Source of the DNA: Patescibacteria group bacterium
GTDB lineage: Bacteria > Patescibacteriota > Minisyncoccia > Phycocordibacterales > Phycocordibacteraceae
Reading direction: 5' to 3'
Assembly (NCBI GenBank): GCA_019744845.1
Contig: JAIETW010000001.1
Span: 282,176-346,175 of the forward strand
DNA length: 64,000 nt
Shown here in pieces: positions 13,598 to 52,735 of this stretch. The notes beneath the pieces are model-generated. The model saw only the letters and a program-made list of their open reading frames with translations. It had not been told where the DNA came from and searched no databases. The position numbers were made by a program, and so were the translations under genes. The stretch's first letter is position 1. Each line of letters opens with the position of its first letter.

Positions 13598-13625
13598 GCT
13601 GTCTGGGACGATGTTGGAACCGCCT
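13598..13625. repeat. Copy A of a ~24-bp repeated motif (ctgtctKggacgatgtKggaacc)
   Basis: Sequence gctgtctgggacgatgttggaaccgcc lies between convergent gene ends. Near-identical copies at 32146, 32757 and a diverged one at 52672. Confidence 0.5.
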
Positions 13626-14362
13626 TACTCTACGAACCTATAAATTTCAACCTTCCCGTCTTTTGAGGGCTCATATTGAACGTTAGGGAACCGTAGAGGT
13701 TTCTTGTTTTTACGAAGCGTTAAAAGGGCTTTGTCTGAGTCATACGATATCTTGATTCCTGACGCCCTCGCTCTTTGCACCAGGTCGGTAATGGCCTCTT
13801 CAGCGTCATCTCTATTGCTCCAATTTATATCACTTGGCACCATGAAGACCCGCAAGACGCCACCTTGCTCTAATGCGACATACAGTTCTTTCAGTGTTCG
13901 GAGCGGATCAGGAAGAGAGTGGAATGCAAGGTGACTAACGATTAGATGATATTTCTCGTCGGGACGGAATGTTAGGTTTTTCTGATCGATGAAAGTGATC
14001 CTGTGCTTTTTATCAAATCTCTTCTCTTCTGGAGTTCTAAGATCTCCCACGCTTATCCCTGTTACCTCAACAGGCACTTCCCCAAGCTCTTGCTTCAGCT
14101 CCCTCATTGCTTGATTTGCTCCACAACCGAAATCGAGCACGCGAATAGTCTCACCTGGGTGTTTTTCTAAAAGTTTTCTGACCCGTGTAGTAATTGCTCC
14201 CTTCTTATGCCAAAGCCTGCGGTTGTACTCTTGTAAACTGGTGCGCAGCCAAGCATAACGGTCATAAGGTTCTGGATTCGTCGTTCTTGTACGTGCTCGC
14301 TCAAGCGACCACCGGCCTGTTTCTTTAATGTTAGAGAGTTTCTGCTTGTGCCCTTCCGACAT
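13625..14362 (-). CDS. Class I SAM-dependent methyltransferase
   Basis: VLDFGCGANQ (motif I) and downstream acidic-loop motifs. Confidence 0.6.
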   Translation of the reverse strand: MSEGHKQKLSNIKETGRWSLERARTRTTNPEPYDRYAWLRTSLQEYNRRLWHKKGAITTRVRKLLEKHPGETIRVLDFGCGANQAMRELKQELGEVPVEVTGISVGDLRTPEEKRFDKKHRITFIDQKNLTFRPDEKYHLIVSHLAFHSLPDPLRTLKELYVALEQGGVLRVFMVPSDINWSNRDDAEEAITDLVQRARASGIKISYDSDKALLTLRKNKKPLRFPNVQYEPSKDGKVEIYRFVE

Positions 14363-14404
14363 TTGTAAAGTATACCAACCTGCTGGCGGTCCAGGACTTG
14401 AACC

Positions 14405-16195
14405 CTATGAACTCTTCCTAAGGTCATCAGTCAAAAATCCTCCCGCCTGTATCTCCCAGAGCTTCTTGTAGAGCCCACCCTCGTGCTTAACGAGGTCCTG
14501 GTGCGTACCCGTCGTCACCACCTTCCCATTCTCAATGACGATAATGCGGTCCATCTTCATGACTGTAGAGAGACGATGCGCAATCGCAATCACGGTCTTG
14601 TCAGCCATAAGCTTCGTAAGGGCGTCCTGAATAAGAGATTCAGACTCTGAATCAAGAGACGAAGTCGCCTCATCAAGCACGAGAATTGGCGCATCCTTTA
14701 GGATGGCACGTGCAATCGCAATACGCTGGCGCTCCCCTCCTGAAAGCTTAATGCCACGCTCTCCCACGAAGGTATCAAACCCTTCTGGTGCCTTAGTGAT
14801 GAATTCATCACAGTGTGCTTTACGCGCTGCCTCAATCACCTCGTCGTCGGTGGCATCCAGGCGTCCATACCGAATGTTTTCCATGAGGGTGCGATGGAAG
14901 AGAGTGGGCTCCTGTGGCATAAAGGCAATAGATTCGCGGAGGCTCTTCTGCGTCACCTCTGCAATGTTCTGCCCATCAATCACAATCGCTCCCCCCTTCA
15001 CATCAAAGAAGCGGAGGATGAGTTTGGTGATGGTCGTCTTCCCTGCACCCGACGGGCCCACGAGCGCGACTTTCTCATGACTTCCAATGGAGAGATTGAA
15101 GTCCTGAAGCACATTCCCACTGTCATTGAACCCAAAGTCCACGTTGTTAAATGAAATAGCTCCACCGGTGACTGAAAGTGCTTTCGCATTCTTCACATCC
15201 TGCACCTCATGCGGCTCATCCATAATCTCCACCATTTCGGTGGCGTCCGCGAATGCTTCAAAGAGCTTTCGGAGCGCAGAACCAAAGTTCCACAAACGAT
15301 CAATGGCCACCAAAAGGTATGCCTGGATCAATACAAAGTCTCCAACCGTGAGCACTCCTTCTGCCCAGAGATGAATAGCGGTAAAGAAAAGAACAAACTC
15401 AATCAGCACCATCATCACGGTCTGCACACTATTCACGATTTCGTTTAAGGTCCAGGACTTATAGAACGCTTTGCGTTGTTTGGTCACCGCCTCACCCAAA
15501 AGCCGTCGCTCCTCATCCTCTCCTGCAAACGTCTTGATCGTGACATCATTTGAAATAGCATCAGACAACACACCCGTCACCTCCGAGTCACGCTCGGCGA
15601 CGGCAAGATTGTATTTGAGCATCCAGCGTGCAACTCCGATTTGAATAGCAAGAAAGATCACCACCCACACCCCAAACGCGAGACCAAGCTTTGGATCACG
15701 CAAAAAGAGCACAATAGTTATACCGGTAAGCGAGACACCAATCGGAATGAAGTCATACACGAGACGATCAAACCACTCTTCGTACGCACGAGTGAGACGT
15801 CCCACACGACGCACAAGGGATCCTGTGAAGTTATTCACGAAGAACCGATAGGAGTGACCGACGAGATACGAATACGCATTCTGCGTCATATCGCTCATGA
15901 CCTTTGGCTCTACATAGATACTGGCAATCACCCCTCCACGACGGGCCGCCTGTCGGACAATGACGACGCTAATAGTGAGTACCAGCATCCCAATCATGAG
16001 CGCCGCCACTTCTTCTGTGGCCATAGGTGCCGCCGCAGCCGTATCAATGATCCGCTTATACAGAAGCGGAATGAAAATATCTATCGCAATCGCAAGCGCA
16101 GTGAGTCCGATCGCAAGAAACGTCGCGACTGGATAGGGCTTCAAGTGTCTGAAAAACACCTTGAGCACGGCACCAACAGCAAGATGTTTTTTCAT
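14405..16195 (-). CDS. ABC transporter, fused permease/ATPase (MsbA-like exporter)
   Basis: Six N-terminal TM helices. Walker A GPSGAGKTT, signature LSGGERQRIAIARA, Walker B ILVLDEATS. Confidence 0.85.
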   Translation of the reverse strand: MKKHLAVGAVLKVFFRHLKPYPVATFLAIGLTALAIAIDIFIPLLYKRIIDTAAAAPMATEEVAALMIGMLVLTISVVIVRQAARRGGVIASIYVEPKVMSDMTQNAYSYLVGHSYRFFVNNFTGSLVRRVGRLTRAYEEWFDRLVYDFIPIGVSLTGITIVLFLRDPKLGLAFGVWVVIFLAIQIGVARWMLKYNLAVAERDSEVTGVLSDAISNDVTIKTFAGEDEERRLLGEAVTKQRKAFYKSWTLNEIVNSVQTVMMVLIEFVLFFTAIHLWAEGVLTVGDFVLIQAYLLVAIDRLWNFGSALRKLFEAFADATEMVEIMDEPHEVQDVKNAKALSVTGGAISFNNVDFGFNDSGNVLQDFNLSIGSHEKVALVGPSGAGKTTITKLILRFFDVKGGAIVIDGQNIAEVTQKSLRESIAFMPQEPTLFHRTLMENIRYGRLDATDDEVIEAARKAHCDEFITKAPEGFDTFVGERGIKLSGGERQRIAIARAILKDAPILVLDEATSSLDSESESLIQDALTKLMADKTVIAIAHRLSTVMKMDRIIVIENGKVVTTGTHQDLVKHEGGLYKKLWEIQAGGFLTDDLRKSS

Positions 16196-16216
16196 GAAGT
16201 TCCCACTATATCACTG

Positions 16217-17209
16217 CTACCGAAGATACCGATCTATGTTTGCGCGATGTGCGTTATACGAAGAGGCGCAGTGAATATCGCCATCATAATCATGCAAATA
16301 GTAGTAGCATTCAGTCTCTTCTGGATTGAGTACAGCGACAATTGCCTCAACACTGGGGTTTGCAATTGGATGCGGAGGAAGCCCCGGACGGAAATAGGTG
16401 TTGTACGGAGACTCTAGATACTTATCTTCCGACTGTGGGACTGGCCACCACTTCGTGGGCTCACCACGTATATATTGGAGTGTCGCATCTATCCCAAGCG
16501 GCATATCAATCTCAAGACGATTCCAAATAACACCCGCAATGAGTGGCATATCGTGTGCACCGTCTGCCTCTCGCTGAATCAAAGACGCAATCACCAGCGC
16601 CTCGTTCCAGTTAATTCCCTTCTCTATTGCTTCGTCCCTCAGATCCTTCGTCATGTGTGCAAAACGTGCGCGCATACGTTCGGCAACTTCGGTGGTGCTT
16701 TGGTCTGAAGGGATCAAATAAATATCCGGGAAATACACGCCCTCTACTACATCCTCCCCAATCACCGTGTCGCGGGTAATCCACTGTTGCTTCTCCTCCT
16801 CCGTCCACCCAAGTGCACGCGCAAAGAGTTCTGCAGTCTGCTCTTTCCGATATCCATCAGGCACTCGTATCCACGCAAGACGTGGTGGCTCAGAGAGAAT
16901 GGTCGCGACCGTCCACGCATCCATGTTCGGTGCGATCTCGTATCCTCCCGGCGTCAGCTCTACGCTTCCGTGCCGAATGGCATACGCAATACTGAATCCA
17001 AAGGTATTTCCGATAAGTCCACGTGCGGCAAGCGCATGCGACACATCTTCTAGTGTTTCCTCAGGAGTGACCAAGAACTCCTCATGTTCCCCCTCTTTCC
17101 CGGGTGGGCCAAAGAGCCCTGCGTATGAAAGTCCAAGGAGAATAATAAGAAGCGCGAACGTACAAAGACTGTACGCGAGCGGATGATTGCGACGAAACGA
17201 AAGAAACAT
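16217..17209 (-). CDS. mltG: Endolytic murein transglycosylase MltG (YceG-like)
   Basis: N-terminal TM. SPYNTYFRPGLPPHPIANPS matches the YceG/MltG signature. Confidence 0.8.
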   Translation of the reverse strand: MFLSFRRNHPLAYSLCTFALLIILLGLSYAGLFGPPGKEGEHEEFLVTPEETLEDVSHALAARGLIGNTFGFSIAYAIRHGSVELTPGGYEIAPNMDAWTVATILSEPPRLAWIRVPDGYRKEQTAELFARALGWTEEEKQQWITRDTVIGEDVVEGVYFPDIYLIPSDQSTTEVAERMRARFAHMTKDLRDEAIEKGINWNEALVIASLIQREADGAHDMPLIAGVIWNRLEIDMPLGIDATLQYIRGEPTKWWPVPQSEDKYLESPYNTYFRPGLPPHPIANPSVEAIVAVLNPEETECYYYLHDYDGDIHCASSYNAHRANIDRYLR

Positions 17210-17279
17210 AGAGGGAACGTTCCTATAAGTATACTGGCGCCCCAGTGAAGGAGCGCCAGTATATCAACACAGTGTCACA

Positions 17280-17807
17280 CTATGCGCTCAGCTCTGTGAA
17301 GGTCACGGTGCTTGGCACTATGAACTTACTCCCGTCCACTGACCAGGGTGCACAGTGATAATCCACTGCCGCAGATGCATCCATGGCACCCTGCGTGGTG
17401 GTCTCTGTGCTTCCGTCCGTCGCCACCTTCATCTTCATTCCCTGTGGCATCATATCGCTCCAGGTGTAGACATACCCTTCACGAGAAATCATGTATGAAT
17501 TAATCGTCATACCAGAGACCTTCGTGGCGAAGTCTCCGCGCATTTTACCCTCACTTATATATACGGTGCCGGCGCTCTCTGACGCACCATTGGTTGCCTC
17601 CGCCTTCATTTCCACATCGCAACGGAATGAACCGGTACGCATCATAAGATCTGCCAAGGTGGCAGAGCCTTCTGCCTTCTCTTCCGTCGTACCGGTGGCC
17701 CCCTCTTCAGTAGGAGCGACTGCAGCATTGTGAGATGAGAAGTACCAGACCCCTCCTCCTACCACCACGACTGCGACGAGAATACCGATAAGTGTTTTTG
17801 GTTCCAT
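17280..17807 (-). CDS. Hypothetical membrane-anchored exported protein
   Basis: N-terminal TM helix, Thr/Gly-rich linker. No recognisable motif. Confidence 0.4.
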   Translation of the reverse strand: MEPKTLIGILVAVVVVGGGVWYFSSHNAAVAPTEEGATGTTEEKAEGSATLADLMMRTGSFRCDVEMKAEATNGASESAGTVYISEGKMRGDFATKVSGMTINSYMISREGYVYTWSDMMPQGMKMKVATDGSTETTTQGAMDASAAVDYHCAPWSVDGSKFIVPSTVTFTELSA

Positions 17808-17931
17808 GTATCTTTCAAAAGTTCGTAATAGAGAAAGTATACCGCCAGACTTTCACCATGCATCCACTGACTCTCCTATATGTTTATAAGCGTATGAAAG
17901 AATCCGAAGAAACGTTGAACATACGGGCTTT

Positions 17932-19491: not shown

Positions 19492-19494
19492 CAC

Positions 19495-31495: not shown

Positions 31496-32122
31496 CTACT
31501 TCTCATCAATCCACTTCACACCGCTCCGCTCAAACTGACGTTTTAAATCCTCTTTTACCGCATCAAGAAAATCCTTGAGTTCAGGGAAATGGTGTGTTGC
31601 CTCATCAAAGGCGTCTACTGCCTTATTGGCATAGTCCGCATGGAACTCCTTCGGGATGTACATCTGCACCTCCCCTTCGGCGATGTGGAGGAACCCTTCA
31701 ATCTTGTCCAGCGCTTTAATAAACTTCGCCTCAGTCGTTTCCTGCGCTTCGTATTCCTTCCATAGGGTATAAATGCGATCTCCAAACGAAATATCTCCTG
31801 TCATTTCGCGCATCGTACTTTCTTCCTCCTGTTCTTTTGCTTGTAAGACTTGATTCCCTCCCTGTATCTGCGTGTACGCGTCTACATCCCCCGAGCGCGC
31901 TTCGCCAAGATCATGAATGAGTGCAAGTGCCAGCGCATGGCTCATATCCACCTGTATGTTGCATTCAGATCCTATGACGTAGGCCATGAGTCCAAGGCGC
32001 CATGAGTGTTCAGCAACGGTGTTACGACCCCCTCGGAGTGAGGAGCTATAGCGCTCTTTGGATTCAAGTGCCTTACTTCTATGTAAGAAGGTGAGGATGT
32101 CACGTACTTGGGTTCGTTGCAT
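31496..32122 (-). CDS. HD-domain phosphohydrolase (YfbR-like 5'-deoxynucleotidase family)
   Basis: VAEHSWRL...ALIHDLGEARSGD, an H..HD..D metal-binding pattern. Confidence 0.75.
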   Translation of the reverse strand: MQRTQVRDILTFLHRSKALESKERYSSSLRGGRNTVAEHSWRLGLMAYVIGSECNIQVDMSHALALALIHDLGEARSGDVDAYTQIQGGNQVLQAKEQEEESTMREMTGDISFGDRIYTLWKEYEAQETTEAKFIKALDKIEGFLHIAEGEVQMYIPKEFHADYANKAVDAFDEATHHFPELKDFLDAVKEDLKRQFERSGVKWIDEK

Positions 32123-32145
32123 ACGGTCGGATAAGTATAACCTTG

Positions 32146-32173
32146 CTGGCTGTCTTGGACGATGTGGGAACCC
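32146..32173. repeat. Copy B of the ~24-bp motif (ggctgtcttggacgatgtgggaaccc)
   Basis: Direct repeat of copy C. Together they flank the low-GC gene 32185..32730. Confidence 0.5.
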
Positions 32174-32184
32174 TTCTGGATTCT

Positions 32185-32730
32185 TTATATTCCTGAATAC
32201 TCGCTGCTTAACCGGGTCGTTGAACCTGTGCGCACATCAAGGTTCCACTTTTCAAAGACACCTCCCCCGCCATCTCCACTGGAAGCGGTGAAGAATACCG
32301 TGTTTTCATCTATAAAGCGCAAGCTATCAGGATCAATTCCCGGACCTCCCGTGTAAGAACCAATGTATTCAATAGAAGGAGTATATGCCCACGTAGACTC
32401 AAGGAAGAAATAGCACGTTGGCGGTCCATAAGGGCCACATGAAGAATCATTTATTCCCCGCTCAACTACCACATACAGTCCATCATAATGATGGGTGGTG
32501 GTTGAGAATTCTGAAACAAATTGGTTTCTTACAATACTAACGACTTTAAATTTAGAACTTTCATATAACTCAGGAGTTGAGAAGCCACTTACTGCCTCAG
32601 CATTCAAAGAAACTTCTGGCGAGGTATTTGAGCTTAAGTCTCTATTTTTTGTATAAACAATAAAAATAACAACACTGACTACAATTACTAGAACGATACC
32701 CACTCCAATTCGTCCTATTTTTGTATTCAT
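32185..32730 (-). CDS. Hypothetical membrane-anchored protein in a low-GC insert
   Basis: N-terminal TM. Visibly AT-richer than the flanks. Bounded by direct copies of the 24-bp motif. Confidence 0.4.
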   Translation of the reverse strand: MNTKIGRIGVGIVLVIVVSVVIFIVYTKNRDLSSNTSPEVSLNAEAVSGFSTPELYESSKFKVVSIVRNQFVSEFSTTTHHYDGLYVVVERGINDSSCGPYGPPTCYFFLESTWAYTPSIEYIGSYTGGPGIDPDSLRFIDENTVFFTASSGDGGGGVFEKWNLDVRTGSTTRLSSEYSGI

Positions 32731-32756
32731 ACAGTAAACATACTATCACCAAGTGC

Positions 32757-32785
32757 TGACTGTCTTGGACGATGTTGGAACCAGA
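32757..32785. repeat. Copy C of the ~24-bp motif (gactgtcttggacgatgttggaaccag)
   Basis: See copies A and B. Confidence 0.5.
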
Positions 32786-33214
32786 TTATGCTGCTGGTCT
32801 TTCCCCCAAATCCTGGTAGAAGCGTAGCAGATATCCATCTGGGTCTTGCACCCAGAACTGTCTGTTCCCTCCCTCTGTTGCGCCAGTCCTATACCACTTA
32901 TCTTCCATCTCACTAAAAATTGGATAGGCGTTGTCTTTGAAATTCGTGTACAGAGCCTCAACGTCTTCAACTTCTATCTGAAAGTGCATTCCTCGGCCTA
33001 GTGGATATTCCAACGCTCCGACCTGCATAGTGCGGCTTTTCTCTGTAAGAGATTCAATCATGACCCACGCCCTCCCTTTACTGAGCATCGCAAACTCTTC
33101 TTCTGGTCGTTGGTATTCAACGTCAAACTGAGCGAGTTTCGTATAAAACTCACGACTCTTATTGAAGTCAGTGACTTTCAACTCAGGAATGAGTGCGGGC
33201 GACTTTCTTTCCAT
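32786..33214 (-). CDS. VOC-family (glyoxalase/bleomycin-resistance-like) protein
   Basis: Paired beta-alpha-beta-beta-beta modules. MHFQIEVEDVEAL is typical of the family. Confidence 0.6.
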   Translation of the reverse strand: MERKSPALIPELKVTDFNKSREFYTKLAQFDVEYQRPEEEFAMLSKGRAWVMIESLTEKSRTMQVGALEYPLGRGMHFQIEVEDVEALYTNFKDNAYPIFSEMEDKWYRTGATEGGNRQFWVQDPDGYLLRFYQDLGERPAA

Positions 33215-33235
33215 GCGTCTATCTTACCTTACGAG

Positions 33236-33306
33236 CTGCGGGACTAGGACTCGAACCTAGATAAACGCCTCCAGAGGGCGCTGTCCTACCATTAGACGAT
33301 CCCGCA
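33236..33306 (-). tRNA. tRNA-Gln (anticodon CTG)
   Basis: Cloverleaf with U1:A72 and G73 (Gln identity elements), U8, anticodon loop CUCUGGA, T-loop TTCGAGT. No encoded CCA. Confidence 0.8.
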
Positions 33307-33794: not shown

Positions 33795-33854
33795 ACGTCT
33801 ATGTGGTTATGTACTAAGTATATACCTGATGCTATAGTGCTCCTGGAATTATTA

Positions 33855-33946
33855 GTATCCAGAGCGCGACGAGGGATCTGGCCCTTTGACTCGCCGGCAA
33901 CCTGTAAAAATACAAGGTGCCTCCAGCCCCGTATGGGGGACGATAC
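33855..33946 (+). promoter_or_regulatory. SAM-I (S-box) riboswitch in the metK leader
   Basis: GUAUCCAGAGCGCGACGAGGGAUCUGGCCCUUUGACUCGCCGGCAACC...GGUGCCUCCAGC...GAUAC matches the S-box consensus (AUCaAGAG.GG.GGAGGGA.UGGCCC.AUGA..CCGGCAACC...GGUGC.A.UCCAGC). A P1 helix GUAUC/GAUAC closes it. Confidence 0.65.
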
Positions 33947-33956
33947 CTACTATCTA

Positions 33957-33990
33957 TCATCCCGCATACGCGGGATTTGCGTTTATGTTT
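33957..33990 (+). terminator. Putative riboswitch expression-platform terminator (atcccgc-ata-gcgggat + U-tract)
   Basis: Hairpin followed by tttgcgtttatgttt. The U-tract runs into the metK start codon, so the exact mechanism is uncertain. Confidence 0.35.
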
Positions 33991-35037
33991 CATCTACTTA
34001 CCCACTACACCACCGAAAGCGTGACGCGAGGGCACCCTGACAAAGTCTGTGACCAGATCTCAGATGCTATTCTTGATGCCTGCCTCGCTGAGGATCCACA
34101 GTCCCGTGTCGCGGTAGAAACGTTCGGGAGCCATGGCACTTTAATGATCGGGGGTGAAATCACCACAAACGCAAAACCAAATTGCGAGGCAATTGCTCGT
34201 AAAGTATATGAAGACATCGGGTACACCGAGGAGCTGGATATCCTCTCTCGTGTCGTCTCTCAGTCTCCTGATATTGCGATGGGAGTAGATACGGGTGGTG
34301 CCGGTGATCAAGGCATCATGTATGGATACGCTACTGATGAAACTCCTGAGTATCTTCCGAAAGGAGTGGTGCTTGCGCACGCACTTGCACGAAGGCTTGA
34401 GAAACTCCGTACGGATGGCACCCTCCCCTATTTGCGCCCTGATGGGAAAACCCAGGTGACAATCAAAGAGGGACAAGTAGTGACCGCGCTCACCTCTACT
34501 CAACATGCAGAGGAGGCAGATCTCAAAGATATTGAGCGCGATCTTAAAGAACATCTCTTCACTCCCGTACTTGGAAGTCTTGAGGGTATAGAAATACTGG
34601 TGAATCCTACAGGACGTTTTGTACAGGGAGGCTTTGAAGCAGATGCCGGACTCACGGGGCGCAAGATCATGGTGGATACCTACGGTGGCCTCATCCCCCA
34701 CGGTGGAGGCTGTTTCTCTGGGAAAGACTCAACAAAAGTGGACCGTTCTGCAGCATACATGTGCCGTTTCGTGGCAAAGAACTTGGTCGCAAACGGCTAC
34801 GCAAAGAAAGCATTGGTTTCCGTCGCGTACGCCATCGGACGCGTAGAGCCCGTGATGGTGGAAGCCTTCGGTGACGATGGAAAGAATCTCACCGACATTG
34901 TGACCAAGAACTTTGACTTCCGTCCACGAGAAATAGAAAAGCGCCTCCAACTACGTCGCCCTATCTTCCAAGAAACCGCAGCGTATGGACACTTCGGTGT
35001 AGACGGACGCCCCTGGGAAGCAGTAGAAAAGATCTAA
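33985..35037 (+). CDS. metK: S-adenosylmethionine synthetase
   Basis: ESVTRGHPDKVCDQISDAILDA, GAGDQGIMYGYA, TGRKIMVDTYGG and DRSAAY are all MetK signatures. Start at MFHLL. Confidence 0.92.
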   Translation: MFHLLTHYTTESVTRGHPDKVCDQISDAILDACLAEDPQSRVAVETFGSHGTLMIGGEITTNAKPNCEAIARKVYEDIGYTEELDILSRVVSQSPDIAMGVDTGGAGDQGIMYGYATDETPEYLPKGVVLAHALARRLEKLRTDGTLPYLRPDGKTQVTIKEGQVVTALTSTQHAEEADLKDIERDLKEHLFTPVLGSLEGIEILVNPTGRFVQGGFEADAGLTGRKIMVDTYGGLIPHGGGCFSGKDSTKVDRSAAYMCRFVAKNLVANGYAKKALVSVAYAIGRVEPVMVEAFGDDGKNLTDIVTKNFDFRPREIEKRLQLRRPIFQETAAYGHFGVDGRPWEAVEKI

Positions 35038-43757: not shown

Positions 43758-43799
43758 AGGTTTTGAATCAAAGCGAATAAGCGCACGAAAACGCGGCAC

Positions 43800-44704: not shown

Positions 44705-44721
44705 ACAATTAATTCAAAAAT

Positions 44722-44943
44722 ATGAAATTATCAAAACCAATGCATGTTATTAGTGTCATAGTTGGACTTGTTGGGATTGGCACATTAATTGCGGCAACTG
44801 TTGCCGGACAAAGTAATTTGGTGTTTGGATTTACTCGGGAGCATTTACTCTTTTGTTCCATCATTGTCTTTCTCGTAGCAATCTGGCTTCAGATTGCCAC
44901 CATCCATCATATGATGCTTGAGAAGCGCGGAGAGGTGGTCTAA
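44722..44943 (+). CDS. Small membrane protein, hypothetical
   Basis: 73 aa, two TM helices. Confidence 0.3.
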   Translation: MKLSKPMHVISVIVGLVGIGTLIAATVAGQSNLVFGFTREHLLFCSIIVFLVAIWLQIATIHHMMLEKRGEVV

Positions 44944-45020
44944 CTAACGGTCTGCAACTAGTTAGCCGATACAGCAAGAGATAATCTAGTTAAAAAATTC
45001 CTCGCCCTGCCGCTCCTTGC

Positions 45021-45310
45021 CGGATTTTTGGATTCCCCCCGCGAAAAAAGAAAAGGATTTCAGTGCGGACCGGGGTCGGGGCGAGCGCCGAGTCTGCGAG
45101 GCGCGAGTAATCAGGGCTCCTTTGCAAAATGGGTTCTAACGGAGTTTAATAGGGTCTCCAAAATCGAAATCAGCCCAGTTTTTCCCGAATGCATTTTTGC
45201 GCAGTGCAATTCCCGCCAAGGGAGTTCAGGGATTCCGCGCGCTTCGCGCGCGTGGAGGGAGGTTCAGAAATACAGAATCCGAAAATTTTCTGGAGGGAGG
45301 ATTTTTTATT
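45021..45310. repeat. Repeat X+Y contiguous (attP-like: X arm, CTCCA at 45156-45160, Y arm)
   Basis: 45021-45161 is the reverse complement of 40701-40851. 45156-45307 is the reverse complement of 48683-48825, about 95% identical with one small indel. Confidence 0.85.
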
Positions 45311-45393
45311 CCTTGTGTGCTTGCCCCACCCTTCCCGTGCGCGCACACGAGCCCTTTCGCTAAAAACGCTGTAATTAGCGAAACTCCCTCCTA

Positions 45394-46683
45394 TTACTTC
45401 AGAAGATCATCCAGTTCACTGGATAGTAAAGCAGATTTATTGAGCAAAATCTCCTCTTTCTGATTCAGATTCTCAGCAGTCATTCTAATGACTTTCGTAC
45501 GGATTATGTTGCCTAAAATAATGTTCCCGGTTTTATCTAGATATTTCCTTGTTTTCCTTGCAAACAAAGTCGCATACTGTCGCAATTTCTCTTCAGAAGC
45601 AGGATGGGAGCTTGAGCCGTTGGCGCCAAACTCTATTTTATTATCAAGCGATATATCTCGCTCAGTTGGCAAGTCTCCGTCGCGGAAGTGGATCCAATAC
45701 TCACTAATTGCATACTGAACATGTACGGGTTCCCCTTCTTCGGTTGAGTAGTCGTAACTAAAGAAAAACGTATCCGTACGGAAATCCTGAAATACGCGAA
45801 TGTGTTCAAGTGAACGAACCTTCCTAATTCCATAACTATCCAGAAGGCGAAGATAACTCTCGCGCCAGTTTGTAAGCCAATTTGTAACGAAGGTCTGATT
45901 TACGAACAGCGGGCTTAGATCCTGCTTAAGGTTTTCGTCGCTCACTTTATTCATCTGAAGAGTGAGCTTGTCGAACAGTGCGCGCGGGTCTTTCACGTCA
46001 ATGCCTTTCGCAATCAGATAATCAAAATCAGGAACAACTTTCTTAGTCATATACCAGAGCAAATCATAGATATCTCTTCCCTTTTCTTCATATGTAGCCT
46101 GTCCAACCCCCCTTGTTCCGCGTAGGAAAATTGCAGCAATTTTACTAGCCATCAGTGAAGACATGTTGTAGGTGAGAATGACGAATGACATTTGGTCGCG
46201 GTTAATCGGCCTACGCTCCGTCACAGTCTTTGGGGCAACAAAATGATTTAGGTCTATTTTTACGTGAATCTGTTTTGAAGGATGTCCCGAGCTCAAATCG
46301 TCTCCAACAATAAACCTGAGCAACAACCCTCTACCGGTAGTTACTTTGATGGTAAGAAAGTCGCTACCGGCGCCATATGTATTAGCAAAATACTCTTCCA
46401 CCTCACTCTTTAGACTTTCCAAGAACTTTTCTGTGATTGAATGACCTACCTCAAAATCCAAATCAACAGACATACGATCTAGCCCGTGGATGATGCGAAG
46501 AGCGGAACCGCCGTACATGACCCATTTGCTGTATTCGGGATGGTGATAGACAAAGTCGAGAACAAAATACTGAAGCTCTTCTTTAAGCGCATTTCGACGT
46601 GTTTCCGCATCCAAGCCACCGTAAGCGGAAAGTTCTTCAAGTTTTCTTTTCAAGATTGTTACGATCTGTTCACTCATAGACAT
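45394..46683 (-). CDS. AbiEii/AbiGii-family nucleotidyltransferase toxin (type IV TA / abortive infection)
   Basis: VMYGGSALRIIHGLDRMSVDLDFEV matches the AbiEii GG(S/T)AL...R.S.DLDF signature. At 429 aa it is longer than typical. Overlaps the upstream antitoxin gene by 14 nt. Confidence 0.75.
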   Translation of the reverse strand: MSMSEQIVTILKRKLEELSAYGGLDAETRRNALKEELQYFVLDFVYHHPEYSKWVMYGGSALRIIHGLDRMSVDLDFEVGHSITEKFLESLKSEVEEYFANTYGAGSDFLTIKVTTGRGLLLRFIVGDDLSSGHPSKQIHVKIDLNHFVAPKTVTERRPINRDQMSFVILTYNMSSLMASKIAAIFLRGTRGVGQATYEEKGRDIYDLLWYMTKKVVPDFDYLIAKGIDVKDPRALFDKLTLQMNKVSDENLKQDLSPLFVNQTFVTNWLTNWRESYLRLLDSYGIRKVRSLEHIRVFQDFRTDTFFFSYDYSTEEGEPVHVQYAISEYWIHFRDGDLPTERDISLDNKIEFGANGSSSHPASEEKLRQYATLFARKTRKYLDKTGNIILGNIIRTKVIRMTAENLNQKEEILLNKSALLSSELDDLLK

Positions 46684-47287
46684 ACGCTTTTATCATGTCA
46701 TTAAATTTCTGCTGTTCACTAATTTCCATTTCTTCAAAATCTATTCTAAGTTCGTTAATTATTTTTGGTATTTCATTACGACGAACACCACGAAACTGAC
46801 GTGTCCTGAAATATAGCAAGTCAAACAATGCTTTCGAGGGAGAGGCGATAAAGAAATTAAACTTCCCTTCCATAAGTGAGTAGTCAGAAAAGAGTTCTTT
46901 TTTAATTGACTGATACGAAAATGTCCCAGCTTTTGTTTCGTAATCTCTGGTCACCTTAAGTGAGACTGACGTAACTGAGCGAATAACCTCTGTAGTGAGA
47001 TTGTAATACTGAAGTGCCGTCCACGAGCTTATGTACGATGGCTTCCGAAGGATGTTCGCAAGGTAGTAAAGATACGAAATTTCACTTTTGTTTTTTTCAA
47101 AGAAGTCTCCCGAAATATATAGGCCATTTTTAAGCGCAAGAATTTCCCTCCGCTTAAGAAAACGGCTTACATAGGTGTTAATTGTGCTCTTTTTGAGGCC
47201 TAGCTGATCAGCAAGCTGAAAAACTGTATTTTTGCTGAAATGAGGTAGAGCCTTGAGCTGTTCTATTAGATTGCTCTTGCTTTTCAT
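46670..47287 (-). CDS. AbiEi-like antitoxin/transcriptional regulator (wHTH)
   Basis: About 200 aa, N-terminal winged-HTH-like region, immediately upstream of and overlapping AbiEii. Canonical AbiE operon order. Confidence 0.6.
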   Translation of the reverse strand: MKSKSNLIEQLKALPHFSKNTVFQLADQLGLKKSTINTYVSRFLKRREILALKNGLYISGDFFEKNKSEISYLYYLANILRKPSYISSWTALQYYNLTTEVIRSVTSVSLKVTRDYETKAGTFSYQSIKKELFSDYSLMEGKFNFFIASPSKALFDLLYFRTRQFRGVRRNEIPKIINELRIDFEEMEISEQQKFNDMIKAYVYE

Positions 47288-47328
47288 AAATATGACACTA
47301 GTGTATTATATATGAAATAAGAAGTCAA

Positions 47329-48900: not shown

Positions 48901-49074
48901 ACTGTATCTTTATCCTAACGGATACCCTTGTCAGTCGTTCGGGCGATATCTCGCCACGGTCTTGTCTCGCATGAGATATTAACCGTTATTCGGGATTCAC
49001 CTACACATTGCTGCATAAGTGGGCAGGGTCTGCGACCCACCATGGACGCGCTCTACCAACTGAGCTACATCGGC
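48821..49074 (-). tRNA. tRNA-Thr (anticodon GGT) split by a 178-nt group-I-like intron in the anticodon loop; CCA encoded
   Basis: 5' exon GCCGATGTAGCTCAGTTGGTAGAGCGCGTCC-ATGGT; 3' exon AA-GGACG-AGGTC-TCCGGTTCAATCCCGGA-CATCGGC-T-CCA. The exons are near-identical to E. coli tRNA-Thr(GGU). The anticodon stem halves CGTCC/GGACG lie 185 nt apart. Confidence 0.65.
48861..49038 (-). ncRNA. Group-I-like intron in tRNA-Thr(GGT), inserted after anticodon nt 36
   Basis: The 5' exon ends in U. The intron ends in G (GTGTAAGCG|AA). P7-like pairing CGACTGACAAGG...AGATACAGTCTAGCC resembles Tetrahymena CAGACUAAAUG...AGAUAUAGUCGGACC. Confidence 0.5.
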
Positions 49075-49193
49075 ATTATCTGACTCGTAAGGAACCCAGG
49101 CATCCTAACGCGACTGCACTAATCTTTCAATCTTCACCAAGTAACCTGGTAGGCTTGCGAGTGGTTCATAAAGGTATACTCTGCTCATAATAT

Positions 49194-51020
49194 ATGTGTG
49201 GCATCGTTGGATACGTGGGCTCCCGAAGTGCATCTCCTATTCTGATGAATGGGCTTCGTGCGCTTGAATACCGTGGATATGATTCCGCGGGCATCTATAT
49301 AAGCGGTGCGGGCGCTATGAAGCGTGCAGGACAGGTCTCAGCCCTTGCTGATGCCCTTCCAGCCTCCTTTGAGGGTACCTGTGGGATTGCACACACCCGC
49401 TGGGCTACCCATGGCGCCCCAACTGAAGTAAACGCACACCCTCATACCGATGGCGAGGAGAGCGTTTGGCTCGTACATAACGGCATTATTGAAAACTATG
49501 CTGATATCCGTGCCGAACTCGTGAAAGATGGTGCAACGTTTAAATCAGACACGGATACCGAAGTACTCGCGGCCCTCATCGCCAAGAAATACACGGAGGA
49601 TATGCTTCTTGAAGATGCGGTTGCCGCAGCCCTTAAGGAAGTGCGTGGCACCTATGGCATTGCGGTTGCGTCTACCCGCGAACCCGAGAAGATTGTCGCT
49701 GCACGCCTCGCAAGCCCAATCATGCTTGGTATAGGTACTGATGGGTATTACGTTGCCTCTGATGCAACGCCAATTCTGAAACACACACGCGAGGTGGTGT
49801 ATCTGGACGATCGTGAGATGGCAATCCTCACTCCTGATGGATACCGCGTCACGACCCTCTCCAAGGAAGTACTCCAAAAAGAAGTAGAAACTCTAGAGTG
49901 GGATATTGAGTCTGCACAGAAGAAGGGATACGAACACTTCATGCTGAAAGAGATGATGGAGATCCCTGATGCCATTGAAAACACGCTCCGTGGCCGTTTG
50001 GTCCCTGCAAGTGGTGAGGTAAATCTGGGTGGGCTTCGCGATGTACTCCCTCGTATTAAGAATGCAAAGCGCATCGTGATCACTGCCTGCGGAAGCGCCT
50101 TCTACGCCGCACAGGCAGGCGAACTTCTGATTGAAGAGCTTACTGGTATTCCGGTAGAGACGGTACTTGCCTCTGAACTCCGCTATCGTCGCAATACGAT
50201 GGATCCAAACGACACCATCCTCTTTGCGATCTCTCAGTCTGGAGAAACGTTGGATACACTTGAAGCAATTCGTGAAGCAAAGCGTCATGGCATTCTTGTT
50301 CTCGGCGTCGTCAACGTAGTCGGATCTTCTATCGCACGCGAAACAGATGCAGGCGTGTACAACCACGCCGGTCCTGAGATAAGTGTCGCCTCTACTAAGG
50401 CCGTGATCTCACAAATGACGGTACTCGCCCTCATTGCCATTCTTATGGGCCGTAATAATGGGCTCTCCCTTCCCGATGGCGAACGCCTCGTGAAAGAGAT
50501 TGCCCGTCTTCCTGAACTTGCACGCAAGGTGCTTGAAGGACACGAGAAGATTCAAGAGATTGCAAAGAAGTATTCCGACACCACGGGTGCCTTCTACCTC
50601 GGCCGCAAGTTCCAGTATCCGGTTGCGTACGAAGGCGCAATCAAACTTAAGGAGATTTCCTACATCCACGCAGAAGCGTACGGCGCAGGAGAAATGAAGC
50701 ACGGACCTATCGCGCTTATTGAGCCAGCCTTCCTTTCCGTCGTACTTGCACCGGAGGATTCTATGTATGAAAAGTCTAAATCAAACATGCAGGAAATCCG
50801 TGCACGTGGTGGACGCATCCTTGCCATTACCACCGAAGGAAAAGAAGAAGATCTAAAGGGTCTTGCGGATGATGTCCTTTCCGTACCAAAGACGGGTGAA
50901 CTCTTCCTCCCTATTCTCACGACTATTCCTCTGCAGCTCTTTGCATACTATGTCGCCCTACGCCGTGAACTTCCTATTGATAAACCTAGGAATCTTGCGA
51001 AGTCGGTGACTGTGGAGTAG
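49194..51020 (+). CDS. glmS: Glutamine--fructose-6-phosphate aminotransferase
   Basis: MCGIVGY N-terminal nucleophile and two SIS domains. 608 aa. C-terminal ...KSVTVE. Confidence 0.95.
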   Translation: MCGIVGYVGSRSASPILMNGLRALEYRGYDSAGIYISGAGAMKRAGQVSALADALPASFEGTCGIAHTRWATHGAPTEVNAHPHTDGEESVWLVHNGIIENYADIRAELVKDGATFKSDTDTEVLAALIAKKYTEDMLLEDAVAAALKEVRGTYGIAVASTREPEKIVAARLASPIMLGIGTDGYYVASDATPILKHTREVVYLDDREMAILTPDGYRVTTLSKEVLQKEVETLEWDIESAQKKGYEHFMLKEMMEIPDAIENTLRGRLVPASGEVNLGGLRDVLPRIKNAKRIVITACGSAFYAAQAGELLIEELTGIPVETVLASELRYRRNTMDPNDTILFAISQSGETLDTLEAIREAKRHGILVLGVVNVVGSSIARETDAGVYNHAGPEISVASTKAVISQMTVLALIAILMGRNNGLSLPDGERLVKEIARLPELARKVLEGHEKIQEIAKKYSDTTGAFYLGRKFQYPVAYEGAIKLKEISYIHAEAYGAGEMKHGPIALIEPAFLSVVLAPEDSMYEKSKSNMQEIRARGGRILAITTEGKEEDLKGLADDVLSVPKTGELFLPILTTIPLQLFAYYVALRRELPIDKPRNLAKSVTVE

Positions 51021-51747
51021 GAAGTTTTTCTCCAGCACGAGGACCAGCAGTAATAAGTGCAATGTAGGATTCAGACGCAACACTCACGGCGTCCACTATA
51101 TCTAGTTTCCCCTGCACCTCGTGGGTACCCACCAAGAGCATCTTTTCATATCGTGAATTGATAGTTTTCATATCCCCAATCAACTCCAGCATACGATCTA
51201 TCGCCGTTGTGATTTCTGCGGCGCGTGGAATCTCGTACACCGGGCGGTTCCGGTTAAACATTGAACTCTTCGGATTGAGGCGCTCACGTACCTGTATGAG
51301 TTTAGAAATCACACCCGTGCAGAATGAAAGACGGAAGCGGTTTGCCTCAAACACCTTTTTAAAGGCAGAGCCGAATAATTCATTGTTTTTCCCCTTGAAT
51401 TCGCGTCGCTGCTGATGGGTCATGAAATCATCCTGCGTTGCATCGGTAGCAAGAAAGTGAGCTGCAAGATCAGCGGTAAACTGCAATTCACGCATAATCT
51501 CTTCAGGAAGATGGCCGAACACCTCCAGATTCAGATCTGAATTCACCCGTTCGGCATGCCGCCATACTTCTACGAGGTGGTCAGTCACTACCGCCTGTAC
51601 TGCCTGCAACAATTCTGCCTCCGTGCTGATCTTCACGGTAGGAGGAATGTTGGCGAGTACGTCTGGTATCTCGCGACGCCACGGACGAAGTGGGTCGGGT
51701 ACCGCGACAGGCTGTTCGGGTGGAGTGTAGCGCGCAGCCTCTGACAT
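50986..51747 (-). CDS. Hypothetical protein
   Basis: 253 aa, no recognised motif. Second gene of a two-gene minus-strand unit. Overlaps the glmS 3' end by 35 nt. Confidence 0.4.
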   Translation of the reverse strand: MSEAARYTPPEQPVAVPDPLRPWRREIPDVLANIPPTVKISTEAELLQAVQAVVTDHLVEVWRHAERVNSDLNLEVFGHLPEEIMRELQFTADLAAHFLATDATQDDFMTHQQRREFKGKNNELFGSAFKKVFEANRFRLSFCTGVISKLIQVRERLNPKSSMFNRNRPVYEIPRAAEITTAIDRMLELIGDMKTINSRYEKMLLVGTHEVQGKLDIVDAVSVASESYIALITAGPRAGEKLPTPQSPTSQDS

Positions 51748-51783
51748 ACGTATGATTTTACTATAGAATGTAAAAAGATAATG

Positions 51784-52623
51784 TCAATGCTCCCCTTCTA
51801 CCCCATACATTCTATAGAAGTCCTCTATTGCACCTTCTGCTTTGTAGGATTTTAAGGGGAAAAGCTTCATAAGGTCTTGGTCCGTGATGCTATCACCTAG
51901 TGCGTAGAGATTTTGAATAAACTCTCGTCGTGCATCATCTGACTTCAAACGAAGCGTATGATCTAGAAATTGTCCCCAGATCTGCCGACCACGAGAGAAT
52001 ACCCCCGCGCTGGTTTCAAGCGTAAGGTGCGACGTATAACTTTCAGGAAATAGACGCCGATATGCCTCAAGGTTATAGAGCCAGGAGTTTCCGTTTACTG
52101 TCTTTGCATCAGGGTACAGTCGTCGTATGAGCGTAAACATGTCGCGAAGTTCACGACGTCTACGATATATCTTCTCTTCAGTGAGCGGTCCCGTGGCATC
52201 CCGCTCATCGTTTTGAAAGTGAATGGTCACTGCCTGCTCTTCGGGATCGTACTCAGAGTTAAAGCAGCCAAACCGGAACGAACCTTCTGGGTGGTATGGC
52301 TGAGGAGCCATCTTCTCAAGTTGGGTTTTATACTGATCCACGAGTGCATGCGTGACTGTATCTACGGACGCAGTGTTGAACCACTCAGGTACGGTCCCCT
52401 CTACAAAGGTTTCTATTGCAGAAGTAAATCTATGAAGTACTTTCACGAATGGAGCCCCTGTTTGTTCGGAAAGTCGCTTCGCCACAAACACCTGAAACCG
52501 TACATACTCTGGCGCAGGTGGGGCCTCCTTTGTTTCAACCCACCAGTCCGGCGCAGGAAATGTGCTTGCAGGTGCGCGTGCTTCTACTCGCGAAACTTCT
52601 GACATGAAGAGAGTATAAAACAC
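51784..52623 (-). CDS. Hypothetical protein
   Basis: 279 aa. Weak resemblance to GNAT-like/acyltransferase folds (FRFGCFNSEY...NGNSWLYNLEAY), not confirmed. Confidence 0.4.
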   Translation of the reverse strand: MFYTLFMSEVSRVEARAPASTFPAPDWWVETKEAPPAPEYVRFQVFVAKRLSEQTGAPFVKVLHRFTSAIETFVEGTVPEWFNTASVDTVTHALVDQYKTQLEKMAPQPYHPEGSFRFGCFNSEYDPEEQAVTIHFQNDERDATGPLTEEKIYRRRRELRDMFTLIRRLYPDAKTVNGNSWLYNLEAYRRLFPESYTSHLTLETSAGVFSRGRQIWGQFLDHTLRLKSDDARREFIQNLYALGDSITDQDLMKLFPLKSYKAEGAIEDFYRMYGVEGEH

Positions 52624-52735
52624 AAAACCACCTCATGGTGGGGTGGGGTGGCACATGTATGTTGGCGCAGGCTACTGAACGTTGTTGGAACTAGGATACA
52701 GAGAAGATTAATCAAGAGGCTCCTATGTGAAGTTT

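Follow-up and report, generated by a model that had tools for sequence, protein, structure and literature searches.

A conserved repeat marks tRNA-Gln-anchored arrays of single-gene cassettes in CPR bacteria, an apparently undescribed integron-like system

The window analysed here, a 64,000-nucleotide stretch of a Patescibacteria group bacterium, carries a short repeat of what is apparently an undescribed integron-like system of CPR bacteria: accessory genes are stacked singly behind tRNA-Gln, and each has one repeat. The arrays are modular, anchored on tRNA-Gln and of constant polarity; they gain and lose repeat-bounded segments of cassette size, and the repeat is conserved above its cargo. 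We consider it probable that the motif is the cassette-borne half of the attachment site of a CPR gene-cassette system, the primary chromosomal site being the 3′ end of tRNA-Gln. No earlier description of this CPR cassette system was found in the literature. The initial annotation of this DNA had treated the motif as a local feature; it is a widespread CPR family, and the anchoring of the window's array on a tRNA-Gln gene (33235-33306) had been missed.

On the minus strand the element reads A.AAAG GTTCCAACATCGTCCCAGAC(A/T)G CCAGCAA and is about 35 nt long. It starts 0-10 nt past the stop codon of a gene, and the next gene's own promoter or a terminator then follows. The CTGTCTKGGACGATGTKGGAACC pattern occurs exactly three times in the window, always on the plus strand (13599-13621, 32150-32172 and 32760-32782), against a chance expectation of 0 (100 shuffles), and on the minus strand each copy begins 3-12 nt past the stop of a minus-strand gene. 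Four copies had originally been claimed: those placed at 13598, 32146 and 32757 are exact, with coordinates 1-4 nt off, and the half-repeat TGGAC-N5-TGGAAC described within the motif is present. The fourth (52670-52692, minus strand; AGTTCCAACAACGTTCAGTAGCC) has 8/23 mismatches and a partial profile match, at 52679-52692, that is not significant (E = 0.47); it is followed by a hairpin terminator and then a TATACT promoter, as in the repeat family, and may be a decayed relic.

Three further diverged relatives had been overlooked. The first, on the minus strand at 54189-54211 (GTTCCACAATTGCCTCAGACAG; 7 mismatches to the 23-mer first described, 5 to the 22-nt core), lies 3 nt past the stop codon that ends ORF 54215-54826, with TAGAAT and then ATG after it; this ORF is ADP-ribosyltransferase-like, with a Pfam ART-PolyVal match below the Pfam cut-off. 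The second, recognized by reading of the sequence, is an intermediate variant between the GFA and ART genes (54844-54868, minus strand; GTTCGAATTCTAGACAGCCAAGCAA), with a T-loop-like left half and a right half resembling AGACAG-CCAGCAA. The third is a partial tRNA-Gln-like 23-mer at 14382-14404. An IS1595 element stands between the 52670 and 54189 copies.

The array that contains two of the exact copies is headed by a tRNA-Gln (CUG) gene on the minus strand (33235-33306), identified by ARAGORN and Rfam. The head proper is the 3′ end of this tRNA, GGTTCGAGTCCTAGTCCCGCAGC, which would be the primary attachment site, and the promoter of the first cassette (TAAGAT) begins 9 nt past it. Cassette 1 carries a glyoxalase/bleomycin-resistance family gene (32786-33214, minus strand; Pfam PF00903; GC 0.466), apparently leaderless, and copy C stands at its 3′ end (32753-32785, minus strand; TAA tct G GTTCCAACATCGTCCAAGACAG TCAGCAC; nhmmer E = 5e-9). 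Cassette 2 encodes a membrane-anchored hypothetical protein (32185-32730, minus strand) that has no match in Pfam; upstream of the gene are TGATAGTAT (an extended −10), 10 nt and the ATG, and the repeat that belongs to it is copy B (32143-32177, minus strand; GGTTCCCACATCGTCCAAGACAG CCAGCAA; nhmmer E = 3e-7). Downstream of copy B come TATACT and the ATG of an HD-domain (YfbR-like) gene (31496-32122, minus strand; Pfam), which has no repeat after it and which in other CPR genomes (loci L092-L094) lies in a different, repeat-free neighbourhood. The cassette genes of the window are low in GC and, as had been noted, two copies flank the low-GC ORF 32185-32730 (0.408, compared with 0.503 for the whole window).

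The remaining exact copy belongs to a single cassette whose cargo is a class I SAM methyltransferase (13625-14362, minus strand; Pfam; GC 0.462), preceded by TGGTATACT, 6 nt and the ATG; a search with this protein gave only itself and no other homologue. On one side, directly past the TAG stop of an ABC transporter, the partial tRNA-Gln-like 23-mer (14382-14404, minus strand; GGTTCAAGTCCTGGACCGCCAGC) is the putative left junction (attL-like) of the cassette. On the other, copy A (13594-13625, minus strand; TAA ggc G GTTCCAACATCGTCCCAGACAG cgaacgag; nhmmer E = 6e-9) is without the CCAGC right part, abuts the 3′ end of a convergent photolyase gene and is the putative right junction (attR-like). 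The two junctions of this single insertion are reciprocal, ..GGACCG|CCAGCA being paired with ..CAGACAG|cgaacgag. The same holds for locus L007, where ..GGGCGG|CCAGCA is paired with ..CAGACAG|tcagatacgg and the corresponding site in L035 is repeat-free, this 'empty' site being diverged and not clean. That the junctions are reciprocal at CCAGC suggests a crossover at a fixed place.

The ABC/BipA site, past the ABC transporter, behaves as a hotspot: L217 and L218 have nothing there, and the cargo differs among the window, L219 and L220. The class of 23-mer found at 14382-14404 is missing from L217, and in L219 it stands at the head of another cassette. Both outer boundaries are common to the window and L219, so that this particular exchange could be due to flanking homologous recombination. 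In addition, L155 exceeds L159, from a related genome, by precisely one gene and one 29-nt repeat; the inserted gene is reversed, while the polarity of the repeat is unchanged. Repeat polarity follows the array and is independent of gene orientation, which argues against a promoter or 3′-UTR role. Together, the reciprocal junctions and the precise one-cassette indel are comparative footprints of a putative recombination site.

The repeat is not confined to this genome: 457 copies were found in 168 CPR (Patescibacteria) loci, abundant but strictly positioned, and not at the random positions that the initial annotation had named as the outcome against its reading. In all of the multi-copy metagenomic loci (81/81) the copies are on one strand. 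They are spaced by about 520 nt (median 518 nt), which corresponds to a single accessory gene, small, unrelated to the others and low in GC, for each repeat. Of the 437 testable copies, 246 have the end of an ORF of 60 aa or more no further than 40 nt upstream, the stop codon being mostly 0-10 nt ahead of GTTCC. The 62 cassette ORFs of the 47 genome loci fall into 56 clusters, and a Pfam census identified the cargo as small accessory enzymes, among them GNAT, HAD, NUDIX, glyoxalase and cupin proteins. The genes neighbouring the arrays are housekeeping genes, and arrays are headed by tRNA-Gln, partial tRNA copies or housekeeping genes. Among 19 homologous pairs the identity of the repeat is 0.86, compared with 0.63 for the ORFs (p = 2e-4), and sequence variants of the repeat are array-specific (p < 0.0005).

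The connection to tRNA-Gln recurs across the family. This tRNA accounts for 34 of the 49 tRNAs near arrays or in motif-bearing loci and is always upstream of the array and co-oriented with it. Moreover, cassettes are headed on the array strand by 46 partial tRNA-Gln 3′ ends, of which 40 measure exactly 23-25 nt (GGTTC..CCAGC), and L014 and L097 hold duplicates of 55-57 nt. The repeat and tRNA-Gln have the terminal CCAGC(AA) in common, and the same cassette gene with its promoter is found after a true tRNA-Gln end (L045), after pseudo-tRNA fragments (L038, L050) or after a canonical repeat. In this comparison the homology begins right past CCAGC, and the canonical repeat always comes after the gene. 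The canonical repeat has only a modest similarity to tRNA-Gln (shuffle test, p 0.008-0.17) and none to Rfam families or the tRNA model. The repeat appears to derive from the tRNA-Gln 3′ end, and a cassette-borne attachment site recombining with this end at CCAGC(AA) is the best reading of the data.

Under the attachment-site reading, the mobile unit would consist of CCAGC(AA), an extended −10 promoter of its own, a single accessory gene that is small and mostly leaderless, the stop codon and AAAG GTTCCAACATCGTCCCAGAC(A/T)G. A circular cassette would recombine with the 3′ end of tRNA-Gln, a partial copy of it or an existing repeat, by a crossover within the short core CCAGC(AA) that they have in common, the counterpart of the acceptor end, G73 and trailer in tRNA-Gln. 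This would keep the tRNA intact with the new cassette placed beside it, and older cassettes would be displaced distally, which would leave every repeat with a cassette on either side. Cassettes would be excised when one repeat recombines with another. The gene for the recombinase would lie elsewhere in the genome, a tyrosine recombinase being the natural candidate.

No array-linked recombinase was found in the 47 genome loci, the window and 571 kb of metagenomic loci. By phmmer, none of the 1,382 ORF segments from the genome loci and the window is XerD-, IntE- or PinE-like, and in the metagenomic loci the matches stayed at background level, with no more than a pair of orthologous Xer-like genes and two weak Pin-like ones. 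At one syntenic position (L137/L153) a Xer-type gene stands at the distal end of the array. The consensus has no dyad symmetry or palindrome by inspection and folding, the three window copies, folded as DNA together with their flanks, gave no hairpin on either strand (z from −1.36 to +0.45), and the positional profile is one contiguous 35-nt block with no partner arm. A search for a circular cassette or an attP-bearing phage or plasmid found none. The attachment-site explanation is weakened by the missing linkage to a recombinase, by the lack of a dyad or hairpin, which sets the repeat apart from attC and from the core sites on which tyrosine recombinases usually act, by the failure to find a circular form or attP carrier, and by the modest similarity to tRNA-Gln.

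The first two of these points would suit an unlikely alternative in which the repeat is a portable short homology of 29-35 nt with no dedicated recombinase; cassettes would be exchanged, lost or gained by RecA-dependent or slippage-type recombination, for instance following natural transformation, a capacity that CPR bacteria are believed to have, and the likeness to tRNA-Gln would be historical. Deletion between 29-nt direct repeats explains the L155/L159 difference equally well, the outer flanks common to the window and L219 fit, and gene conversion could give array-specific variants. However, efficient RecA recombination usually has a minimum at which, or below which, a repeat of about 30 nt stands, and second-order selection for recombination is unlikely to keep about 95% per-position identity of the repeat across CPR lineages while cargo identity falls to 63%. 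The sharp length of the partial tRNA copies also speaks against it, as do the reciprocal CCAGC junctions.

It is quite improbable that the repeat is a 3′-UTR RNA element, a tRNA-3′-end-like mRNA tag acting as a processing, termination or stability signal (e.g. for tRNA-processing nucleases) in polycistronic cassette transcripts. Such a role would account for the tight coupling to stop codons, the likeness to the T-loop and acceptor end of tRNA-Gln and the position of terminators, which, where present, are downstream of the motif, so that it would be transcribed. But 19% of the copies come after a divergent gene start and are in no co-oriented 3′ UTR, the reversed gene of L155 left the repeat polarity as it was, there is no conserved secondary structure or 5′ partner for a minihelix, and the lack of similarity to Rfam or the tRNA model also counts against it.

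An operator or promoter element of the downstream gene is very unlikely. Here two 11-nt direct repeats (GTTCCAA-CATC / GTCCCAG-ACAG) would bind an OmpR/PhoB-type regulator about 10-12 nt upstream of an extended −10 with no −35. Direct repeats upstream of a −10 resemble pho-box architecture, the motif does stand 9-14 nt upstream of TAnnnT boxes, and in extended copies of about 60 nt it provides a TTGGAA −35 for a divergent promoter. Against this, 28% of the copies face the 3′ end of a convergent gene, another 24% lack a gene within reach, about 13% directly precede a terminator, and copy A has no gene to control; the 'regulon' would be made up of hypervariable genes with no relation to one another, and the tRNA-Gln anchoring and partial tRNA copies would be left unexplained. 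An OmpR/PhoB-type operator at a fixed distance from the promoter was rejected, as the spacing to the −10 ranges over 9-18 nt and varies by at least 6 nt. That a promoter role is unlikely had been recognized from the start, and it is borne out by the 28% of copies with no downstream co-oriented gene.

The proposal that the flanking copies mark the insertion of the low-GC gene holds in so far as some form of site-specific recombination is supported by cassette-sized, repeat-bounded indels between related genomes, and fails in that this insertion made no duplication, each cassette carrying its own 3′ copy. A target-site duplication, formed when gene 32185-32730 entered a pre-existing target motif, would explain why two direct copies flank a low-GC gene, and is scarcely credible, being already contradicted by the family-wide architecture: copies B and C differ at 1 position and are joined to the 3′ ends of different genes, the repeat occurs 457 times with unrelated cargo, and a tRNA, not a repeat, heads the first cassette.

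Among known systems, close parallels to the cassette organization can be drawn with integron and CALIN arrays, which likewise hold co-polar, single, small, unrelated and often low-GC genes, each with a site-like repeat near the stop, and show occasional reversed cassettes with unchanged site polarity, repeats that are homogeneous within an array and similar cargo (GNAT, glyoxalase, NUDIX and others). The CPR arrays are co-polar, diverse and single-gene in the same manner, but have neither the attC hairpin nor an adjacent IntI/attI. Their repeat is about 35 nt, sequence-conserved, asymmetric and unstructured, whereas attC is an imperfect palindrome of 55-140 nt that folds as single-stranded DNA; no IntI is adjacent in the 47 loci, the window and 571 kb, and the head is the 3′ end of tRNA-Gln and not attI. 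By their sequence the CPR cassettes have their own promoters, and there are many small arrays per genome in place of one platform. Xer/dif modules (IMEX, pdif) are mobile units that lack a recombinase of their own and use a host enzyme, as the CPR cassettes would. A dif-type site of about 28 bp is made of two 11-bp arms, inverted relative to each other, and a 6-bp spacer between them, whereas the CPR repeat has no inverted-arm symmetry and is not a dif-like site. A REP or MITE-type repeat was ruled out, there being no palindrome and the polarity within arrays being strictly single.

The tycheposons of Prochlorococcus are tRNA-anchored genomic islands built by successive integrations; they are kilobases long, and what defines them is a site-specific integrase of their own together with hallmark replication genes (bioRxiv 10.1101/2020.12.28.424599). 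As in the CPR arrays, the island adjoins a particular tRNA gene, partial copies of the tRNA 3′ end occur throughout it as att remnants, and the genomes are streamlined and poor in classical mobile elements; newer elements displace older ones further inwards, as new CPR cassettes would. The CPR units have the tRNA anchor and the partial tRNA copies, but they are single genes of about 0.5 kb that encode no integrase or hallmark genes, and their main repeat does not copy the resident tRNA, being a derived sequence of 30 nt that is conserved from one CPR lineage to another. The rAID-1 arrays of Bacteroidales, with co-directional genes, skewed GC and repetitive intergenic sequences called reminiscent of integrons, have a conserved 5′ XerD-like recombinase gene and immunity-gene cargo (bioRxiv 10.1101/471110), whereas the CPR arrays have no 5′ XerD-like gene and are not defined by immunity genes. 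We tentatively suggest that CPR bacteria may possess a gene-capture system of their own, parallel to integrons in function and of independent origin, with the tRNA-Gln 3′ end as acquisition site, a 30-nt unstructured, tRNA-derived cassette site, self-promoted cassettes and an unlinked, possibly housekeeping, Xer-type recombinase. If so, it would be a major route for the exchange of accessory genes across lineages of ultra-small symbiotic bacteria.

The 23-bp sequence CTGTCTKGGACGATGTKGGAACC has exactly three matches in the window, all on the + strand, at 13599-13621, 32150-32172 and 32760-32782 (copies A, B and C), with none expected in shuffled window sequence. The initial annotation had placed the copies 1-4 nt away from these positions and counted a fourth one, at 52670-52692, which has 8/23 mismatches to the motif and only partially matches (E = 0.47) a search profile built from 120 family members. 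It had also overlooked a better diverged copy at 54189-54211, an intermediate variant at 54844-54868 and a related 23-mer at 14382-14404. The two middle copies do flank, as claimed, a low-GC ORF (32185-32730, GC 0.408 vs 0.503 for the window), for which exact-protein look-ups returned only members of the same population, arranged identically. The initial observation is thus essentially sound and the suspicion of recombination turns out to be partly right, whereas a local duplication does not describe the feature, which is much larger and represents one locus of a widespread system.

Read on the minus strand, every window copy follows a gene of that strand, starting 3-12 nt past its stop codon, and the genes concerned encode a SAM methyltransferase (13625-14362, −), a membrane-anchored hypothetical protein (32185-32730, −), a glyoxalase/bleomycin-resistance protein (32786-33214, −) and an ART-like protein (54215-54826, −). 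The consensus of the element, from a positional profile made with 124 copies, is A.AAAG GTTCCAACATCGTCCCAGAC(A/T)G CCAGCAA, with an information content above 1 bit at positions −1 to +25 and background values outside −6 to +28. The element is followed 3' either by an extended −10 box (TGnTAnnnT), with the ATG of an apparently leaderless next gene about 7 nt further on, or by a hairpin terminator. One small gene with its own promoter and the repeat after its stop codon is referred to here as a cassette, and cassettes in series as an array.

In the window, the cassette genes appear to be leaderless, as does the reversed photolyase gene, and so do the cassette genes of most other loci, with a TAnnnT box 6-7 nt before the ATG, often a TG upstream of it, and no Shine-Dalgarno sequence (examples in the window are the stretches 33215-33234, 32731-32759, 14363-14381 and 12160-12200). 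Some copies in other loci (denoted by L-numbers) have directly upstream a 32-nt extension, CTAGACAGAACGTACCATATGTTGCAGAAAG, which is 85-96% identical between distant genomes (L013 6418-6449, L020, L023, L032 6175-6206, L033, L047 and others). On the opposite strand this extension corresponds to an extended −10 promoter, TGGTACGTT, for which the repeat supplies TTGGAA as −35, and which drives divergent small genes that, unlike the leaderless cassette genes, have GGAG-type ribosome-binding sites. The gene divergent from these extended copies of ~60 nt was considered as a recombinase candidate and rejected, since its products are mutually unrelated small proteins and the extension reads as an opposite-strand promoter.

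Several simple explanations of the motif fail: as a −35 element its distance to the −10 is too variable, as a dif site it lacks dyad symmetry, and as a DNA uptake sequence, by reasoning, its density is ~10-fold too low and its positions and polarity are too strict. A structured RNA fares no better, as searches for a tRNA or tRNA-like RNA with Rfam, at both gathering and permissive thresholds, returned genuine tRNA-Gln genes only. No Rfam family matches the element, its hairpin potential is not significant on either strand (z −1.4 to +0.45), and its resemblance to tRNA is confined to the primary sequence.

When one genome per species was scanned, the motif was found in 53 loci, 47 of them from Patescibacteria/CPR, with record titles that include Saccharibacteria, Paceibacterota/Parcubacteria, Wolfebacteria and Kaiserbacteria, and a metagenome scan gave at least 120 loci. 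The genomes and the metagenome matches listed together hold at least 457 copies (up to 5 mismatches allowed against the 22-nt core), spread over at least 168 loci. Among the metagenome matches listed, all copies are on one strand in 81 of 81 multi-copy loci, and the median spacing of 518 nt (IQR 392-609) corresponds to one small gene per repeat; the array of L024 has at least 8 copies by the 22-nt-core criterion. An ORF of at least 60 aa ends within 40 nt upstream in 246 of the 437 testable copies, with peaks of the stop-to-GTTCC gap at 4, 2, 1, 8 and 0 nt.

The other 6 of the 53 genome loci are alphaproteobacterial and have one high-GC coding sequence in common. Coding sequence of GC 0.60-0.70 in Rhodobacterales-type genomes and IMG/VR contigs (L008, L016, L017, L025, L048, L053, L059-L091) contains an identical 22-mer, GTTCCAACATCGTCCCAGACAG or its variant ending in A, and the long ORF covering it gave no Pfam hit. 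We judge these to be chance matches within a single conserved gene family and unrelated to the CPR element, because about one such family is expected by chance for 20 specified bases in ~600 Gb. A phage or plasmid carrier bearing an attP site was also rejected, as all 33 IMG/VR hits are this same high-GC alphaproteobacterial coding sequence with the 22-mer. Curated phage and plasmid collections contained no real match to the motif, and there are no circular contigs among the metagenome matches listed (at least 120 loci).

The cargo is diverse, with the 62 ORFs that end at a repeat in the 47 CPR genome loci falling into 56 sequence clusters. The products that can be named are small accessory enzymes, such as GNAT, HAD, NUDIX, glyoxalase, cupin, histidine phosphatase, nucleotidyltransferase, SDR, VanX-like peptidase and methyltransferase proteins, whereas the genes bordering the arrays are housekeeping ones (for example SerRS, DNA polymerase III clamp loader, Dus, nrdA/nrdB). 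In the window, the cassette genes have a GC of 0.41-0.47, compared with 0.51 for the neighbouring ABC transporter. The L032 array is preceded by ribonucleotide reductase genes, upstream of which there is an AdoCbl riboswitch-like match (185-252, 40.8 bits) that does not reach the gathering score of 50.

The arrays are anchored at tRNA-Gln. In the window, the glyoxalase cassette starts 9 nt past the tRNA-Gln gene (33235-33306), and tRNA-Gln represents 34 of the 49 tRNA genes in all motif-bearing loci, every other species occurring at most three times. In every tRNA-Gln locus with copies these lie downstream on the tRNA strand, with none on the opposite strand. Outside tRNA genes, a further 46 fragments in the format of the tRNA-Gln 3' end (GGTTCGAnnCCnnnnCnnCCAGC) are found on the array strand; 40 of these keep exactly the last 23-25 nt, often with a TAG stop directly before, and three keep 42-57 nt. 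The canonical repeat and the tRNA-Gln end have GGTTC, GTCCC and the terminal CCAGC(AA) in common, with an overall similarity that is only modest (p 0.008-0.17, shuffle test), and the variant at 54844-54868 (GTTCGAATTC-TAGACAG-CCAAGCAA) is intermediate between the tRNA-like and canonical classes. Partial tRNA-Gln duplicates of 55-57 nt lie immediately downstream of the intact gene in two loci (L014 7141-7194; L097 7865-7943), and are classic integration scars. Just outside the tRNA-Gln array of the window, a SAM riboswitch (33852-33949, +, 56 bits) lies upstream of the S-adenosylmethionine synthetase gene (33886-35037).

Comparison between loci points to the repeat as the boundary of mobile units. 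Homologous cassette genes with homologous promoters are headed either by a real tRNA-Gln end (L045/L173) or by pseudo-tRNA fragments (L038, L050), and in other gene clusters by a canonical repeat; cassette homology begins directly after CCAGC, and the canonical repeat is always 3' of the gene. This combination of variable heads and a constant repeat after the gene indicates that the canonical repeat travels with its upstream gene. The methyltransferase cassette of the window has the left junction TAG GGTTCAAGTCCTGGACCG/CCAGCA-promoter and the right junction GGTTCC..CAGACAG/cgaacgag (slashes mark the junctions), and the same pattern is observed in L007 relative to the repeat-free site in L035. 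These reciprocal junctions are what a crossover at ..G/CCAGC would predict.

At the site of this cassette, between ABC transporter and BipA genes, the repeat is absent in L217/L218 (93% identity), where the BipA promoter and the stop codon of the ABC gene overlap. Before this same promoter the window has the methyltransferase cassette and the reversed photolyase gene, L219 has YgjV and two ORFs with the same 23-mer head, and L220/L221 have two other genes and two canonical repeats. Between flanks that are 92-95% identical in the two loci, L155 is 844 nt longer than L159, and this extra sequence consists exactly of one reversed 275-aa ORF and one 29-nt repeat. Cassette-sized blocks of homology between two repeats, in otherwise unrelated contexts, are found in L024/L043 and L001/L027.

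In the 368 copies with both flanks complete, the 3' end of a convergent gene comes next in 28%, and in 19% the copy comes after the start of a divergent gene. Inside arrays the polarity never switches, whatever the orientation of the flanking genes, and it is unaffected by the reversed cassette of L155. This constancy argues against a role as operator or promoter for the gene downstream, or as 3'-UTR element for the gene upstream, and favours a directional DNA site. The repeat is under a constraint of its own, as in 19 homologous cassette pairs repeat identity is 0.86 and ORF nucleotide identity 0.63 (p = 2e-4). The choice of A or T at core position 20 is array-specific (p < 0.0005), resembling the homogeneous attC sites of chromosomal integrons.

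The architecture of the arrays, their anchoring at a tRNA and the footprints seen in comparisons are direct observations, and the best-supported model for them is attachment at tRNA-Gln. The primary attachment site would be the tRNA-Gln 3' end or a partial copy of it, the cassette-borne site would be the canonical repeat, and strand exchange would take place inside the common CCAGC(AA) core, which would preserve the tRNA and put each new cassette beside it; a cassette would be excised when two repeats recombine. From this we infer a circular intermediate, an exact crossover point and an enzyme. The main weakness of the model is that a recombinase is missing. Neither the 47 genome loci nor the window contain Xer-, Int- or Pin-like ORFs, and 571 kb of metagenomic loci (matches listed) contain two Xer-type genes and two weak Pin-like fragments, about the background for any CPR DNA. 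The Xer-type genes are orthologues of each other (71% identity) and occupy the same syntenic position in L137 (5434-6471) and L153, at the distal end of the array and facing inward; at this background frequency they were rejected as a linked recombinase, leaving no candidate near the arrays. Since the recombinase is missing and the repeat is without dyad symmetry, which recombinase core sites typically have, recombination through short homology with no recombinase involved is a real rival to attachment at tRNA-Gln.

The window has several other features. An IS1595-family element (52773-54128, +), with a Zn-ribbon ORF (52773-53063, +) and an ISXO2-like DDE transposase (53307-54128, +), has the possibly decayed copy at 52670 on one side and the diverged copy at 54189 on the other, and was probably inserted into a small array downstream of tRNA-Asp. 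The HD-domain (YfbR-like) gene at 31496-32122 is in the terminal position of the tRNA-Gln array; its more distant homologues in other CPR (L092-L094) are beside TrmB, deoxyribosyltransferase and dUTPase-like genes in a repeat-free neighbourhood, and it may have been captured by, or relocated to, the array end. A group I catalytic intron (57851-58100, −; Rfam RF00028, 71 bits, gathering score 50) has no tRNA call at its position. A low-GC patch at 45394-47287 (−, GC 0.40-0.47) contains an AbiEii-type nucleotidyltransferase toxin gene (45394-46683, −) and an adjoining 205-aa ORF that matches no Pfam family, and probably represents a type IV toxin-antitoxin or abortive-infection module.

The CPR/Patescibacteria, which comprise a large part of bacterial diversity, have very small genomes that are considered poor in classical mobile elements; to our knowledge, the means by which they gain and exchange accessory genes are largely unknown. 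A conserved and easily searchable 30-nt repeat, which flags hundreds of single-gene cassettes with putative detoxification, modification and resistance-type enzymes and many unknowns, would be a direct handle on the flexible gene pool of CPR and on gene flow between lineages, and makes the recombinase question directly testable. A short unstructured site with a defined insertion point by tRNA-Gln is also a possible genetic tool for organisms that are hard to manipulate.

The literature searched for the sequence and for CPR cassettes, integrons and islands contained no description, and the window feature is one locus of a widespread, apparently undescribed tRNA-Gln-anchored CPR cassette system. 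It has repetitive intergenic sequences in common with rAID-1 arrays, but not their 5' XerD-like gene. The tRNA anchoring and partial-tRNA repeats are common to tRNA-targeting islands such as tycheposons, whereas here there is no element-encoded integrase and the units are single genes. The defining features of an integron cassette array, the attC fold and IntI, are absent, yet the system works alike, and would be a second integron-like capture system that is mechanistically distinct.
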